Shown here: one piece after another, positions 28,401 to 43,967 of the stretch | How positions within the stretch are numbered: position 1 is the first letter of the stretch | Layout: the number at the start of each line of letters is the position of its first letter | Made by a program: the position numbers and the translations under genes | The notes under the pieces: model-generated | Told to the model about the DNA's origin: nothing | Database searches by the model: none | Seen by the model: the letters and a program-made list of their open reading frames with translations, nothing else | Assembly: GCF_003334765.1 (NCBI RefSeq) | Contig: NZ_QOWT01000001.1 | Origin: Escherichia coli | GTDB lineage: Bacteria > Pseudomonadota > Gammaproteobacteria > Enterobacterales > Enterobacteriaceae | DNA length: 64,000 bases | Reading direction: 5' to 3' (one strand)

Positions 28401-28673
28401 TGAAAAATCTCCTGTTCACCATGAAACGCCACGCAAGCATCCCTCATGGTCAAAGTATATGGCATATGTGAATCCATGGTTACATGTTCTACCAAATATG
28501 AGCAAATCATAATGAAAGTAGGATCAACCAATTATAAACAAAACATTCATGATGATTATTGATTTGAAGATAATGTTTTACTACCAACGGTAAAAATCGG
28601 TCATTCCGCATGGTATTCACGAAAAGTTTATGTTTGAGTGGTGCGCAAACGTCAGATTGAAAAAGGATGAACT

Positions 28674-34004: not shown

Positions 34005-35507
34005 TTACGCTACGGCTGCTTTCGCCGCTTTGTCTGCAGCGTCATCCTGCGTCATGCGGTGCAGTTTCGGCGCGGTCAGCAGCATCAGTACTGCAATAAC
34101 GGCAGTAGCGACACCAATCTGCAAGAATACGCGACCATAGACTTCCAGTGACATCAGCGGATCGGTAACGTTATCCGGCACAGCCATCATACCCGCAACA
34201 TAACCACCAATCAGGTTTGCACCGGCAGTGGTCAGGAACCAGCTACCCATAATGAAGCCCATCAGACGCTGCGGAACGAGTTGAGCAACCATTGCCAGAC
34301 CCAGACCAGAGATCATCAGTTCCCCGATGCTCTGCAGGCCATAGCTTGCGACCAGCCAGCTTACAGACACGATACCAGCGTCAGACGCGAATTTCGCACC
34401 CAGCGGCAGAATCAGGAACGCACCAGAACACATCACCATGCCGATTGCAAACTTGGTTGGCATCGGCAGGGTATCGCCCATCTTGTTATAGATAGCGGCC
34501 AGAATCGGACTACCGATGATGATCCAGAACGGGTTCAGTGCCTGATACTGCTCAGGTTCTACGGCCAGACCCAGAATGGAGTGCTCAACGTTACGAATCG
34601 CAAAGAAGTTCAGTGACGTTGGCATCTGGCTGTACAGCACGAAGAAGATAATGGCTTCGAGCATCAGGATGAAGGCAACGATCATTTTACGACGCGCAGC
34701 ACCTTTCATCGCGAAGGCTTCTTTACCGAAGATAACCACGATACCGAAGGCAACAACGCCCAGCGCCATACGCGCAACTTCCTGATTGTGCAGCAGCCAG
34801 GTGGCGATAGCGATCAGTGCCACAACACCAATAATGGTCAGCAGCAGGTTACGGTAGTTGATAGGCTCGAAGTCTGGTTTTGAACCGTACTGTTTAACCC
34901 AGCGTTGGCAGAAGGCGAAGTTAACGATAGTGATCAGCAGGCCTACAACGCTCAACGCAAACGCAACACTCCAGCCGTATTTCGCGGCCAGCCACGGCGT
35001 AGCAATCATAGAGAAGAAAGAGCCGATGTTGACGGACATGTAGTACATGGTGAATGCACCGTCCAGACGCGGGTCGTTTTTCTCATAGCATGTAGAAAGC
35101 AGAGAAGACGGGTTAGCTTTAAACAGGCCGTTACCGACCGCAATAGCCGCCATACCCATATAAACGATACCGGCGTCGTGACCAGACCAGGCAACCAGAG
35201 CATAACCAATCGCCAGCACAATAGCGCCGAGCATAATTACGCGTTTAGTACCCAGTACCTTGTCACCTAACCAGCCGCCGATAGCGACCAGACCATAAAC
35301 CAGGGCACTAAAGGAAGAGAAAAGGGTGATTGAATCCGCTTCAGACATACCCAGTTGTTTAACCAGGTAAACAGCCATAATTCCTTGTAGGCCGTAATAA
35401 CCAAAACGTTCCCATAACTCAATCGAGAAGATGAGATAGAACGCCTTCGGTTGTTTGAAAGCGTTCAAACTGACGCTTTCAGTTGGTTTTTGGTTTGCAG
35501 TGGACAC
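34005..35507 (-). CDS. dtpA: Proton-dependent di/tripeptide permease DtpA (TppB), 500 aa
   Basis: ORF-track 500 aa; POT/PTR2 family 14-TM protein. Confidence 0.95.
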
Positions 35508-36117
35508 TTTTACCTCTTTTTTTACATCCCATATTAACGGGGGTGCTTTCTCGCGTTATGTATAAAAAACATACGCGCAATTGTTATAGTGGGAGGGGAA
35601 ACGGCAGGTAATGTTCACTATCTTGCACTTTCAGACAAGTCCTTTGTAATAATCTGTTACATATAACTGAGGCGGGGAATTCAACCATTCCGGGAAATGT
35701 TATCCAGCGTTAAATTTTTCAAAAAACGTAACGGCAGATTTTTTCACTGCACTGAGAGGGGGGTGATGGCTTAACGGCGATATGTTCTGCTATTTAGCGT
35801 TTTTACTAGTGAGATAGTCCAGTTTCTGAAAAATAGCCAGTGTAATGTTTTGTAGGTCAATATTTGTTGCGTGTGTAAATTTAAATGATTTTAACCTGAT
35901 TCTTGCAATGTTTTTACATTGCGACAGCATCGTGATCTTGATCACGAATGAATAGAAAATTTCGCTATTAAAAAAACAATTAACCTGCATTTTTGGTTAT
36001 CCGCAAACGGATTACCTGATGATAACGCTAAGCAATGGCATCATTGACGTTAAAAAGATGTTTTAAAAGAGGATAAAGAAAGGTTATCAATGGGGTAATC
36101 GGTGTTACCCCTTTTCT

Positions 36118-36753
36118 TCAGATGTCAACTTTCTCTTTGTATTCACAAAGATCTTCAATAATACAAGAGCCACAGCGGGGCTTGCGGGCAATGCAGGTAT
36201 AACGCCCGTGCAGGATCAACCAATGGTGGCAGTCGACTTTAAACTCTGCTGGAACCACTTTCAGTAGCTTTTCTTCTACCTGTTCGACGTTTTTCCCCGG
36301 CGCAAATTGAGTACGATTACAAACGCGGAAAATGTGCGTGTCGACAGCAATAGTCGGCCAGCCGAATGCAGTGTTTAATACGACGTTGGCTGTTTTACGA
36401 CCTACGCCGGGCAGGGCTTCAAGCGCAGCACGATCTTCCGGAACCTCGCCATTATGCTGCTCCAGCAAGATACGGCAGGTTTTGATGATATTTTCTGCTT
36501 TGCTGTTATAAAGCCCAATCGTTTTGATATAGGTTTTCACCCCTTCAACGCCCAGTTCAAGCATCGCTGCAGGCGTATTCGCCACCGGGTAGAGTTTCGC
36601 CGTCGCCTTATTAACACTGACATCGGTCGCCTGAGCGGAAAGCAGTACGGCAATCAGCAATTCAAAAGGCGAACTGAAATTAAGCTCGGTGGTGGGATGA
36701 GGATTGTTCTCACGCAGGCGAGTGAGGATCTCCAGGCGTTTTGCTTTATTCAT
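36118..36753 (-). CDS. nth: Endonuclease III (211 aa)
   Basis: ORF-track 211 aa; HhH-GPD motif and C-terminal 4Fe-4S cluster (CxxxxxxCxxCxxxxxC); last gene of the rsx-nth cluster. Confidence 0.95.
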   Translation of the reverse strand: MNKAKRLEILTRLRENNPHPTTELNFSSPFELLIAVLLSAQATDVSVNKATAKLYPVANTPAAMLELGVEGVKTYIKTIGLYNSKAENIIKTCRILLEQHNGEVPEDRAALEALPGVGRKTANVVLNTAFGWPTIAVDTHIFRVCNRTQFAPGKNVEQVEEKLLKVVPAEFKVDCHHWLILHGRYTCIARKPRCGSCIIEDLCEYKEKVDI

Positions 36754-37448
36754 CAGACATTCCCTGTTTCACCGTTTGGCAATGCACGTTCTGCAGCTGC
36801 TTCAGCACGGCGCTTTTTCATTCTTTCATCAATCAGGTATTTTCCTGCCAGCATCAGTCCCAGGCCAATAAATGCACCTGGTGGCAGCATCGCCAGCAGG
36901 AAAGGGGAGTCGGTGTGGAAAATCTCCACGCGTAATACTTTTGCCCAGCTACCTAACAGCGCATCTGCACCGTCAAACAATGTGCCATTGCCGATAATTT
37001 CGCGTAGTGAACCCAGCACGAACATGGCGCAGGTTGCGCCCATACCAATTGAAAAGCCGTCCAGTGCCGAAAGCGCCGGACCTTTTTTGGCGGCGAAGGC
37101 TTCAGCGCGGCCCACAACGATACAGTTAGTGACAATCAGCGGAATAAAAATCCCTAATGATTGATACAGGCCAAAGGCGTAGGCGTTGATCAGCATCTGT
37201 ACAGCGCTGACCACCGAGGCGATGATCATCACGTAAATGGGAATGCGGATCTCGGCTGGCGTCCAGTGACGCAGCGTCGAAATGGTCAGGTTGGTCAGCG
37301 TCAGTACCAGCGTAGTCGCAAGTCCTAAACCCAGAGCGTTAGTGGCAGTGGACGTGACCGCCAACAGAGGACAAAGGCCGAGCAACTGGACCAGCGCAGA
37401 GTTGTTTTTCCACAACCCCTGAACAATAACGTCTTTAATTTCGCTCAC
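36753..37448 (-). CDS. rsxE: Rnf/Rsx electron-transport complex subunit E (231 aa)
   Basis: ORF-track 231 aa integral membrane protein; stop overlaps the nth start by 1 nt. Confidence 0.93.
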
Positions 37449-37451
37449 GCT

Positions 37452-38072
37452 TTATTCTCCACAGGCAGGAAGTTGAGAAAGTTGTGCCGGTAACGTCTGA
37501 GCGTACAATCCGGCGCGTTTTACCGCATTAACCACCGCGCGGGGAGTAATCGTCGCGCCGGTGAACTGGTCGAAATCACCACCATCTTTCTTCACCGCCC
37601 AGTGCGCATCATCTGCACCACTGATTTTTTTACCCGCAAAATGGGTGATCCAGTCAGAAAGGCGCAGTTCGATTTTATCGCCAAGCCCTGGCGTTTCGTG
37701 GTGCTCTGTCACGCGCGTGCCAAGTACCGTGCCGTTAAAATCGGCTCCCACCAGCAGCTGAATCGCACCGGAATAGCCATCTGGCGCGGTTGCTTCCAGA
37801 ACGGCGGCTACCGGTTTGTCATCCTGTTTGGCGATGTAAACCCGATGCTCACCTTTACCTAACTCTGGCGCAGTTACCAGATAGCAACTCTGTGCCAGCG
37901 CATTGTTATAGCGTTCGGCTGGCAGCACCTGATCAAATAACGCCTTTTGTTGCAGACTGGCCTGTTCAGCAATCGTCGTTTTGGTCATCTGGTTGATGGC
38001 CGCAGTTAACCCTGTTGAACCCGCTGCAAATAGCGCCAACGTAATGCCGTGTTTTCGGATAGTTTTCAGCAT
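37452..38072 (-). CDS. rsxG: Rnf/Rsx complex subunit G (206 aa)
   Basis: ORF-track 206 aa; FMN-binding-domain protein with N-terminal TM anchor. Confidence 0.93.
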
Positions 38073-38075
38073 GGT

Positions 38076-39134
38076 TTACCCTTTGCGATGGCCGTAGACG
38101 CGCGGACGCGTGTAGTAATCGATCAGAGGAACCGTGATGTTCGCCAGCAGGACGGCAAAAGCCACGCCGTCAGGATAGCCGCCGAAACTGCGGATCAACC
38201 AGACTAATAAGCCCGCAAGCGCGCCGAAAATAAGACGACCACGATTGGTCGTAGAAGCGGTAACCGGGTCAGTCAAAATAAAGAATGCGCCGAGCATGGT
38301 CGCTCCAGACAGCAGATGAATTTGCGGTGCTGCCAGTGTTTCTGGTGAGAACAACCAGCCCAACATTGCGCATAACGCCAGCGTTACTAAGAAGCTGAGG
38401 GGAATATGCCAGCGAATCGCTTTCTGCCATAGCAACCATACGCCGCCAGCCAGCCAGGCGAGATTTACCCATTGCCAACCAGCGCCCGCCAGAATACCGC
38501 TGTAGATCGGATATTGCATAATCTGTTCAACCGAATGACCGGCACGGACAGAGGTTTTAAATGTATCCAGCGGTGTCGCCTGACTAATGCCATCAATACC
38601 TAAGCGTAGTGTGTTCATATCACCACCACTGGCGGTATGACCGCTAAAAATAACCTGGATGGCGTCGATAAAACCAGGGATGTTGACCGCAATTTCATGT
38701 GGCGGTAACCAGCTGGTCATCTGCACGGGGAAGGAGATCAGTAAGACCACATAACCAATCATTGCCGGATTAAACGGGTTTTGTCCCAGACCGCCATACA
38801 ACTGTTTAGCGATGATCACCGCAAACACCGTACCCAGCACGACCATCCACCATGGCGCGAGGGGGGGAATACTTACCGCCAGCAATAAGCCTGTCAGCAA
38901 TGCTGAGTTATCTTTCAACGTTGCGGCTACCGACTGCTTGCGTAGTTTGAGTACGAGAGCTTCGGCTAACAGAGCACTAACCGATGCCAACAGGATCTGA
39001 ACGAGAGTACCCCAACCAAAAAACCACAGTTGCGCTGCGATTCCTGGCACGGCTGCGAGCAACACCAACAGCATAATGCGCGATGTCTGGCGCTGGTTAT
39101 GGGTATAAGGGGAGCTAGCTATTCTGAATACCAT
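38076..39134 (-). CDS. rsxD: Rnf/Rsx complex subunit D (352 aa)
   Basis: ORF-track 352 aa polytopic membrane protein. Confidence 0.93.
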
Positions 39135-41927
<2,793 letters not shown>

Positions 41928-41928
<1 letters not shown>

Positions 41929-42509
41929 TACAACTTCACCAAACCACTAAAGCCCATAAAGGCCAGAGACATAAGACCTGCGGTAATTAACGCAATGGCA
42001 TTACCGCGAAAAGGTGCCGGGACATCAGCCACAGCAAGGCGTTCGCGGATGGCGGCGAAGAGCACCATCACCAGCGAGAAACCGACAGCGGCGGAAAAAC
42101 CGTACAGCGCCGACTGCAAGAAATTGTGCCCGAGATTGATATTCAGCAACGCCACGCCGAGCACTGCACAGTTGGTGGTGATAAGCGGCAAAAAAATCCC
42201 CAGCAGACGGTAAAGCACCGGGCTGGTTTTGCGCACCACCATCTCGGTGAACTGCACGACCACAGCAATCACCAGAATAAATGCCAGGGTGCGCAGGTAA
42301 ATCAGATTAAGTGGGATCAAAATCCACGTATCGATAAGCCAGGCGCAAATAGACGCCAGCGTCATCACAAACGTTGTTGCCAGCCCCATGCCCATCGCGG
42401 TTTCCAGTTTTTTGGAAACCCCCATAAACGGACAGAGACCGAGAAACTTGACCAGTACAAAGTTATTGACCAGTACAGTTCCGACAAACAGTAACAGGTA
42501 GTCAGTCAT
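41928..42509 (-). CDS. rsxA: Rnf/Rsx complex subunit A (193 aa)
   Basis: ORF-track 193 aa hydrophobic protein; first rsx gene; stop overlaps the rsxB start by 1 nt. Confidence 0.93.
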
Positions 42510-42585
42510 TTTTCGGCCTGAAATAAAAAAGCCGCCTATTATCCGTTAATCCAGAGCAGGCGACAACAGGTTAACTGTAAGGTTA

Positions 42586-43026
42586 TTACGGATTCACAAA
42601 CGTCGCTTTTACCCGCGACGAGCGTTTGAAATAGGGGACGATCAATGCGGTTGCCAACAAAGTAAACAGCAACTGGCGAACGGCTATGCCATCTTCCACG
42701 GGTGAAAAAGCGAATGCTTTTACTGCCAGCAATACGGAAATAAGCAGCCAGATAATATAGTGTTTAGGAACACAACGCCGACGTTTAAAGAAAGCGATGG
42801 TCAACCACAGTGTGTAATACCACAAGGCGATAGCGGTAATAAAAGAAACGCCCCATAAGATTTGTGTCGTCAGTGCTTGTCCGCCGAGCGTTTGAAATGT
42901 TTGCGGAGAAGATAACGCAGCGGTATACAGCAACAACGCCAGCGTCGTACTCAACAGAGCGACTAAAAGCCAGGCCAACGGGCCAAGCAACCAGCCTCCA
43001 ATACGTTGTGGCGTTGTGGTGGTCAT
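42586..43026 (-). CDS. ydgK: DUF2569 inner-membrane protein YdgK (~146 aa)
   Basis: ORF-track frame 42586..43050; start placed at the internal ATG (MTTTTPQRIGGW) by recall of K-12 YdgK; 4 predicted TM helices. Confidence 0.8.
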   Translation of the reverse strand: MTTTTPQRIGGWLLGPLAWLLVALLSTTLALLLYTAALSSPQTFQTLGGQALTTQILWGVSFITAIALWYYTLWLTIAFFKRRRCVPKHYIIWLLISVLLAVKAFAFSPVEDGIAVRQLLFTLLATALIVPYFKRSSRVKATFVNP

Positions 43027-43725: not shown

Positions 43726-43967
43726 TACAGCCCACATCTCTCTTGATTGATCCATTAACTTCAGGGGGTAAATGTTACTTAGCAATAATAGCTCCAGCAA
43801 GATTTTTACTGAGGTTTTTGCGATATTTAGCTTTTGTCGTTGGAAAATTCGCTATTTTTTTGACTTAAGTTAAACAACATCCCTTATTGCTGGCAGGTTA
43901 TTAAACTGTTGAGCGTGGGTAAAGGATAGTGTCAAATAGCCATCATACTTCAATGAGAGGCAATGAC

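Follow-up and report, generated by a model that had tools for sequence, protein, structure and literature searches.

A CRP site and conserved blocks at fixed spacing in the long nth-dtpA intergenic region of Escherichia coli

Why is the gene of a peptide transporter preceded by more than six hundred base pairs of intergenic DNA? The question is raised by dtpA (tppB), whose product is the main proton-driven di-/tripeptide importer in enteric bacteria. The gene serves as a reference case of OmpR regulation and shows strong induction in the mouse gut, and adaptive mutations have repeatedly hit its promoter in long-term stationary phase. We analysed the locus in a window of 64,000 nucleotides of the Escherichia coli K-12 genome (NCBI RefSeq assembly GCF_003334765.1, contig NZ_QOWT01000001.1), in which a position equals 1748276 minus the NC_000913.3 coordinate. 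On the minus strand of the window the genes read rsxD-G-E, nth (36118-36753), the spacer (35508-36117), dtpA (34005-35507, GTG start) and gstA; nth and dtpA are thus co-directional, and the spacer joins the 3' end of the former to the 5' end of the latter. An earlier note, made from the sequence alone, had described this spacer as unusually long and devoid of any convincing open reading frame (ORF), and had pointed to two inverted repeats, here IR1 and IR2, as candidate binding sites for regulators such as OmpR or CRP, or as a structured leader of dtpA. The analysis below, taken with in vitro data from the literature, identifies IR1 as a genuine high-affinity CRP-cAMP operator, which stands, together with other conserved blocks, at a fixed distance from the dtpA promoter.

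With 610 bp and 37% G+C, the spacer is indeed the longest intergenic region of the window, the next ones measuring 390 (uidA-uidR), 333 and 307 bp. The view that it is non-coding also holds. Its longest ORF, of 66 aa (35790-35990, minus strand), has no conserved start codon and was rejected as a conserved small ORF, with in-frame stops in 47 of 49 related species. The sequence of the 610 bp is 100% identical to that of MG1655, and 5424 of 5426 complete E. coli genomes contain it. Neither RefSeq record annotates any feature in it, and this includes NC_000913.3, where no RNA is annotated.

The longer palindrome is a CRP site

IR1 had been described as a repeat with 7-bp arms and a 2-bp spacer at 35931-35946. 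It is present at this position and extends to 8-bp arms around the same TT spacer, at 35930-35947. The symmetry of IR1 and IR2 is by itself within chance expectation: among 2000 dinucleotide-preserving shuffles of the 610 bp, 14.5% hold a perfect inverted repeat with arms of at least 8 bp and a spacer of at most 8, and 41% hold one with arms of at least 7 bp. What sets IR1 beyond chance is not the palindrome but its match to a CRP matrix and its conservation. The feature is the following:

35928-35949, strand not assigned: CRP binding site of 22 bp, with IR1 (tCGTGATCttGATCACGa, 35930-35947) as palindromic core and its centre at 35938/35939

The core, cGTGA-tcttga-TCACg, keeps 8 of the 10 bases of the TGTGA-N6-TCACA consensus, including both GTGA and TCAC. 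We scored the window with a CRP matrix trained on the 39 other 'novel' sites in Table 1 of a Footprint-seq preprint (PMC12871828), IR1 being left out. IR1 is the top match in the 64 kb, with 20.5 bits; the median of the training sites is 16.9. The second-best match, at 19.2 bits, lies in the uidA-uidR intergenic region, which we take to harbour a known CRP site and to serve on that assumption as a positive control.

Binding of CRP to this site in vitro is already public. Table 1 of the preprint by Wang, Stringer and Wade (2026; PMC12871828) contains the entry '1712342 ttCGTGAtcaagaTCACGatg 2.1 dtpA' among previously undescribed CRP-protected regions: exactly the IR1 sequence is protected in vitro, with an estimated dissociation constant (Kd) of 2.1 nM. 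The proposal of a regulator-binding site, with CRP as a candidate, is thus confirmed for IR1 by the matrix match, by the in vitro protection and by conservation at a fixed position, which is described next. CRP would be expected to occupy IR1 in vivo as well, and to affect dtpA expression.

For this comparison, a scan for DtpA gave 80 Enterobacteriaceae loci, hence 81 spacers with that of K-12. The gene nth lies directly upstream of dtpA in all 80 loci. Spacer length is 570-638 bp in 70 of the 81; the others carry larger insertions. A CRP-like site of at least 9 bits is found 427-431 bp from the dtpA start codon in 60 spacers and scores at least 15 bits in 39 of the 81, the 99th percentile of control 600-bp segments being 12.2 bits. 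The distance from this site to the nth stop codon varies (142-209 bp), and in Kosakonia a gene is inserted there; the site therefore belongs to dtpA and not to nth. Most genera carry TGTGA...TCAC(T/C/A), which is nearer to the consensus than the K-12 sequence. The CRP core is thus ancestral, and its extension to a perfect 8-bp palindrome is peculiar to Escherichia. In three divergent E. coli isolates, IR2 is identical to that of K-12; IR1 is as in K-12 in two of them and has a CATGA left half-site in the third.

Several side observations concern this site. In E. coli NRZ105019 (locus L087), a natural G-to-A change at the base aligned to 35932 turns the left CRP half-site from CGTGA into CATGA and offers a possible natural test. 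The site carries two GATC Dam sites 6 bp apart (GATCTTGATC, 35934-35943), both retained in most other genera; under-methylation of these sites in CRP-bound DNA is conceivable, and methylation-sensitive sequencing would then offer an inexpensive readout of occupancy in vivo. The gene inserted in Kosakonia is an ORF for a membrane protein of 141 aa (K. oryzendophytica, locus L046, 2835-3260; also loci L049, L055, L057, L058, L060 and L062), which separates nth from the dtpA control region and runs on the opposite strand. Kosakonia also has a second strong CRP-like site about 139 bp upstream of the standard position, which in several of these species is degenerate. An apparent 139-bp insertion in this genus was rejected, as the anchor match on which it relied was spurious and the standard architecture is retained.

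A direct repeat beside the CRP site and a family-wide spacing

IR2 is located where it had been placed, at 35905-35922, and is better described with 7-bp arms (GCAATGT and ACATTGC) around a tttt spacer. Its standing as a regulator site has two sides. The palindrome is restricted to Escherichia, with an unconserved right arm; the position is occupied in other genera by a direct-repeat element. In most of them the aligned sequence reads TGATA-N6-TGTTA-N6-TGTT, that is, three direct repeats 11 bp apart. E. coli has three 5-mers in the same phase, TGCTG (35929-35925), TGTAA (35918-35914) and TGCAA (35907-35903), and keeps only the TG of each repeat. On the evidence of this alignment, we regard IR2 as the form that a conserved repeat of the response-regulator type takes in Escherichia; that it is palindromic is probably incidental.

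This architecture resembles that of ArcA boxes, which are direct repeats with an 11-bp centre-to-centre spacing, often three to five in number (Park et al. 2013). We built an ArcA matrix from the 115 boxes of that study derived from chromatin immunoprecipitation (ChIP), the weakest of which scores 9.6 bits. The fumA and fumC boxes of the window score 17 bits, as expected of members of the training set. In the dtpA spacers the matrix peaks at one fixed upstream position, which starts 19 bp after the CRP centre. The score there is at least 9.6 bits in 60 of the 80 species, at least 12 bits in 44 and at least 15 bits in 22, with a maximum of 21.0 bits in Klebsiella michiganensis. We infer from this match that an ArcA-type regulator may bind the repeat next to the CRP site. 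Expression of tppB is 2.5-fold lower in an arcA mutant during anaerobic growth (Park et al. 2013, Table S5). Elsewhere in the window, the same matrix has two strong matches outside its training set, at 28524-28541 (minus strand, 15.8 bits), between anmK and slyB, and at 43895-43912 (plus strand, 14.9 bits), between ydgJ and blr; both are intergenic.

The CRP site and the repeat belong to a longer series of conserved blocks:

35950-35987, minus strand: block A (CAGGTTAAT, a run of seven T, AAATTTCTAT), on the nth side of the CRP site, with near-invariant columns across genera
35902-35929, minus strand: counterpart of the ArcA-box-like repeat, three TG-phased 5-mers with 11-bp spacing, containing IR2 (GCAATGTttttACATTGC, 35905-35922)
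35694-35852, minus strand: blocks C to F, at about -250 to -90 relative to the mapped start, with a GadX binding site mapped by ChIP-exo inside the stretch

We measured the distance of each block from an invariant anchor in the core promoter, GATAGTGAACATTAC:

OmpR box: 40 bp to the anchor, exact in 80 of 80 species
Block F: 95 bp, exact in 80 of 80
Block D: 169 bp, exact in 73 of 73
Block C2: 195 bp, exact in 67 of 68
CRP centre: 315 bp (316 in Escherichia), exact in 53 of 60
Block A: 364 bp, exact in 63 of 72

The spacing of about 365 bp upstream of the core promoter is thus free of insertions and deletions throughout the family. Blocks C to F are set apart by spacers that cannot be aligned and yet have an invariant length. 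The segments between blocks are about 34% identical, which is close to random, while the nth-proximal part of the spacer is free to vary in both length and sequence. Fixed distances between blocks despite such divergence, next to free variation on the nth side, point to a constraint on spacing itself. This constraint is neither RNA-based, as seen with RNAalifold (below), nor coding, as seen from the ORF stops.

We searched for known proteins that could occupy these blocks. At no fixed position of the spacer is a consensus pattern of IHF, FNR, Lrp or Fis conserved, and no GcvA-type or Lrp-type motif was found in it. For block A, a comparison by hand with PhoP, Lrp, sigma-S and ArgR motifs was unconvincing and these candidates were dropped.

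The OmpR-dependent promoter and the dtpA leader

The position of the promoter relative to these elements was obtained from two ChIP-exo tables, for OmpR and GadX, from which we back-calculated the dtpA start. The OmpR peak (U00096.2 1710621-1710680, window 35620-35679) is that of an activator centred at -46.5, and the GadX peak (U00096.2 1710534-1710554, window 35746-35766) is given at -151 from the dtpA start. Both tables put this start at U00096.2 1710695-1710697, which is 35603-35605 in the window. The features of this region are:

35641-35660, minus strand: proximal OmpR half-sites GTAACAGATT and ATTACAAAGG, about -57 to -38, abutting the -35 element; invariant in 80 of 80 loci
35603-35638, minus strand: core dtpA promoter, with putative -35 TTGTCT (35638-35633), 17-bp spacer, putative -10 AACATT (35615-35610) and start at about 35603-35605
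35508-35604, minus strand: dtpA 5' leader of about 97 nt, with hairpins at 35552-35577 and 35528-35541 and GAGG at 35513-35516

The hexamers are assigned by us from the mapped start. An A-to-T change that recurs in long-term stationary phase at -108 from the start codon, which is position 35615, raises dtpA mRNA about 23-fold. In keeping with the mapped start, it falls on the first base of the putative -10 element and turns the weak AACATT into TACATT. This base is an invariant A in 24 representative aligned loci.

Relative to the mapped start, the CRP centre (35938.5) is at about -335, while IR2 covers about -300 to -320; the mapped transcript includes neither. OmpR, the other regulator named in the earlier note, is therefore not the protein to be expected at IR1 or IR2: its ChIP-exo peak and its half-sites are about 250-300 bp away, at 35620-35679, and the repeats next to the CRP site are spaced by 11 bp and not by the 10 bp of tandem OmpR half-sites, whose signature is GxxAC.

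The idea that the two repeats form a structured leader is not supported either, since the mapped start, near 35604, is downstream of both, no Rfam family matches and no structure is conserved upstream. A scan of 35300-36300 against Rfam with E-values up to 1 gave only two chance matches, far below the gathering scores. With RNAalifold, 120-nt windows upstream of the start, on both strands, have a consensus energy of about zero in all cases but one. In this single exception the small stem corresponds to the invariant OmpR half-sites, which themselves form an inverted repeat. Likewise, the hairpins predicted for the upstream E. coli RNA are the palindromes themselves. The earlier note had named three observations that would together tell against its proposal, namely a start downstream of both repeats, no protein binding and no conservation. 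The first is what we found, whereas the other two do not apply to IR1.

A structured dtpA leader does exist, about 330 bp away from the repeats that had been flagged. The 97-nt leader is almost invariant across the family. In helix 1 (35552-35577), 8 of the 10 pairs are changed on both sides across genera. Taken jointly, the two leader helices pair in 83% of cells, against 36-43% in slid controls, and their covariation score of 0.279, against 0.150 in shuffles, is reached by none of 500 shuffles. The second, small hairpin (35528-35541) lies just upstream of GAGG (35513-35516), which we read as the ribosome-binding site. The transcript of tppB is a target of the small RNA GcvB; this was verified in Salmonella, and for E. 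coli the target is listed as a conserved one. The single-stranded CCCACTATAACAAT ahead of the leader hairpins is near-invariant, and we suspect that it is the GcvB target site.

The other end of the spacer carries one more feature:

36092-36111, strand not assigned: G+C-rich hairpin found by a terminator scan, directly 3' of the nth stop codon

In K-12 the accompanying T-run (TTTTCTTC) is present only on the plus strand, antisense to nth. A hairpin follows the nth stop codon in 58 of 81 species, with a sense-strand T-run after it in only 8 and an antisense-strand one in only 6. nth may thus be devoid of a classical intrinsic terminator, and read-through into dtpA may occur. The ydgK-rsxABCDGE-nth operon (36118-43000), upstream of dtpA, is 2.3-fold down in the arcA mutant (Park et al. 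2013), nearly the 2.5-fold decrease of tppB. Possible origins of this similarity are shared control and read-through from nth into dtpA.

Possible action from a distance and its alternatives

How could a CRP site at this position act on dtpA? We tentatively favour, with somewhat less than even confidence, a distal module that acts on the OmpR-dependent dtpA promoter through a defined nucleoprotein geometry. The module, about 300-380 bp upstream of a sigma-70 promoter, would consist of block A, the CRP site and then the ArcA-box-like repeat, represented in E. coli by IR2. It would feed carbon status, most likely, and redox status, probably, into dtpA transcription from a distance. CRP would act by bending or looping of fixed geometry together with the complex of OmpR and RNA polymerase at the proximal site, and not by contact with an adjacent class I or class II promoter. 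Action at a distance is favoured by the elimination of a nearby promoter, detailed below, and by the fixed spacing. A stronger form, which we regard as possible but doubtful, is a rigid enhancer-like assembly of 365 bp common to the Enterobacteriaceae, in which CRP and an ArcA-type regulator bound more than 300 bp away would act by looping or wrapping, dependent on helical phase, at the OmpR-dependent sigma-70 promoter.

A number of observations weigh against this interpretation. Action from -335 is uncommon at sigma-70 promoters, and a further dtpA start may exist upstream. A fusion with only -201 to +15 retains OmpR control, which shows that the distal module is dispensable for basal OmpR-dependent activity. 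In the papers searched, neither CRP occupancy in vivo nor a CRP-dependent change of dtpA expression was found. In Kluyvera and Pseudocitrobacter the CRP site is lost and all else is retained. The ArcA-like element of Salmonella scores -4.8 bits, and the K-12 18-mer ATGTAAAAACATTGCAAG (35902-35919, minus strand) reaches 8.2 bits, less than the weakest training box (9.6). Under the names tppB, dtpA and ydgR, the gene is absent from the supplementary tables of Park et al. 2013 that we examined, the binding-site tables included, except for the expression table. Finally, bent DNA was considered as the carrier of the geometry and set aside: a periodicity of A/T tracts of 10.2 bp is detectable across species from the conserved columns only, and in E. 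coli it is weak (z of 2.2, 93rd percentile of window tiles).

The main rival places a second dtpA promoter, P2, just downstream of the CRP site, which would then be a class I or class II site producing a leader of about 300-390 nt in glucose starvation. Intergenic CRP sites with a Kd of about 2 nM are usually regulatory (PMC12871828), and the full 430 bp before the start codon are constant in length, which could suit a transcribed unit. A candidate -10 element is a TAnnnT-like hexamer common to Escherichia, Citrobacter and Salmonella, about 46 nt downstream of the CRP centre (TAAAAT, 35893-35888, in K-12). However, it is not conserved beyond these three genera and would set CRP at about -57.5, which is not on the helical face of class I sites. 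Among 56 species, we found no conserved -10 element on either strand at the spacings that correspond to CRP at -41.5, -61.5, -71.5, -82.5 or -92.5. A simple sigma-70 scan of the spacer was empty as well, with no site against 2.5 expected, which is uninformative. RNAalifold detects no conserved structure in the putative long leader, and the two ChIP-exo studies place OmpR and GadX against a single start at about 35604. We consider P2 unlikely, although it ranks first among the alternatives.

Next comes an orphan or architectural site, which would bind CRP in vitro without regulatory output in E. coli, IR2 being a chance palindrome in AT-rich DNA. This would agree with the chance level of the palindromes alone, with the absence of a CRP effect on dtpA from the papers searched, with the CATGA half-site of one E. 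coli isolate and the loss of the site in some genera, and with the wide use of the spacer as a 'neutral' landing pad. Without selection, however, it is hard to see why about 20 genera would keep a GTGA-N6-TCAC core at one fixed position, and the neighbouring blocks are conserved too; we judge this explanation quite improbable. Least probable of all is a divergent plus-strand promoter that would give a short antisense or small RNA towards nth (about 35980-36118) ending at the terminator-like hairpin: the plus-strand T-run after the K-12 hairpin, TATTAA/TAAAAA at 35966-35974 about 40 bp from the CRP centre and the high conservation of block A, its would-be promoter and 5' end, speak for it, but the candidate -10 hexamers are poorly conserved and have no key T at -7, the best conserved plus-strand hexamer, TAACCT, would set CRP at -54.5, the 90-160 bp between block A and nth are conserved neither in sequence nor in length, the antisense T-run is found in only 6 of 81 species, and no RNA is matched in Rfam or annotated in NC_000913.3, so that this candidate was rejected.

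The favoured distal module can be compared with known systems. The CRP operators of lac, at -61.5 (class I), and of galP1, at -41.5 (class II), are canonical. Like them, the dtpA site is a 22-bp element of two-fold symmetry with a GTGA-N6-TCAC core and, according to the literature, nanomolar affinity in vitro. Unlike them, it stands about 335 bp from the only mapped start and is associated with no conserved class I or class II -10 element. Another parallel may be gcvTHP, where a CRP site near -313 reportedly acts through GcvA and DNA bent by Lrp (Wonderling and Stauffer 1999). In both cases the CRP site lies more than 300 bp upstream of a sigma-70 start, the operon is related to amino acids or peptides, and other regulators stand in between. 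They differ in that dtpA has no GcvA-type or Lrp-type motifs and OmpR as its proximal activator, and the CRP dependence of dtpA is presumed.

The ompF promoter is said to have a distal OmpR site, F4 (-380 to -361), for which the laboratory that also mapped the tppB promoter proposed a looping model. Like ompF, dtpA has a promoter that depends on OmpR and, 300-380 bp upstream, a conserved element, and it is activated at low OmpR and repressed at high OmpR. In contrast to ompF, the distal dtpA element is composed of CRP and 11-bp ArcA-type repeats and not of 10-bp OmpR repeats, OmpR is detected by ChIP-exo only at the proximal site, and repression at high OmpR is seen with the fusion that is missing the distal module. 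ArcA is usually a repressor that acts near the promoter. The element next to the CRP site has in most genera the repeat architecture described for ArcA boxes and scores up to 21 bits; the K-12 copy, IR2, departs from it by its low score and by the absence of tppB from the binding-site tables examined.

These results also bear on the use of this spacer. Reporters are commonly inserted in the nth-ydgR spacer as a 'neutral' landing pad (Kuhlman and Cox 2010), and the promoter libraries of Urtecho for massively parallel reporter assays were integrated in it. In fact, conserved regulatory blocks crowd this spacer. A landing-pad insertion could cut dtpA off from its distal module, or read into dtpA.

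Two elements of this description appear to be new, namely the family-wide architecture of 365 bp free of insertions and deletions, and, over 300 bp away from the promoter, the ArcA-like repeat that abuts the CRP site. Overall, the locus is a modest regulatory puzzle and not a new kind of element. If action of the distal module is true, carbon and oxygen inputs would be added to a supposedly simple OmpR promoter, and dtpA would provide a tractable case of long-range control at a sigma-70 promoter. If the rigid assembly is true, dtpA would be a rare example of long-range integration of carbon, redox and envelope signals at a promoter that does not depend on sigma-54.

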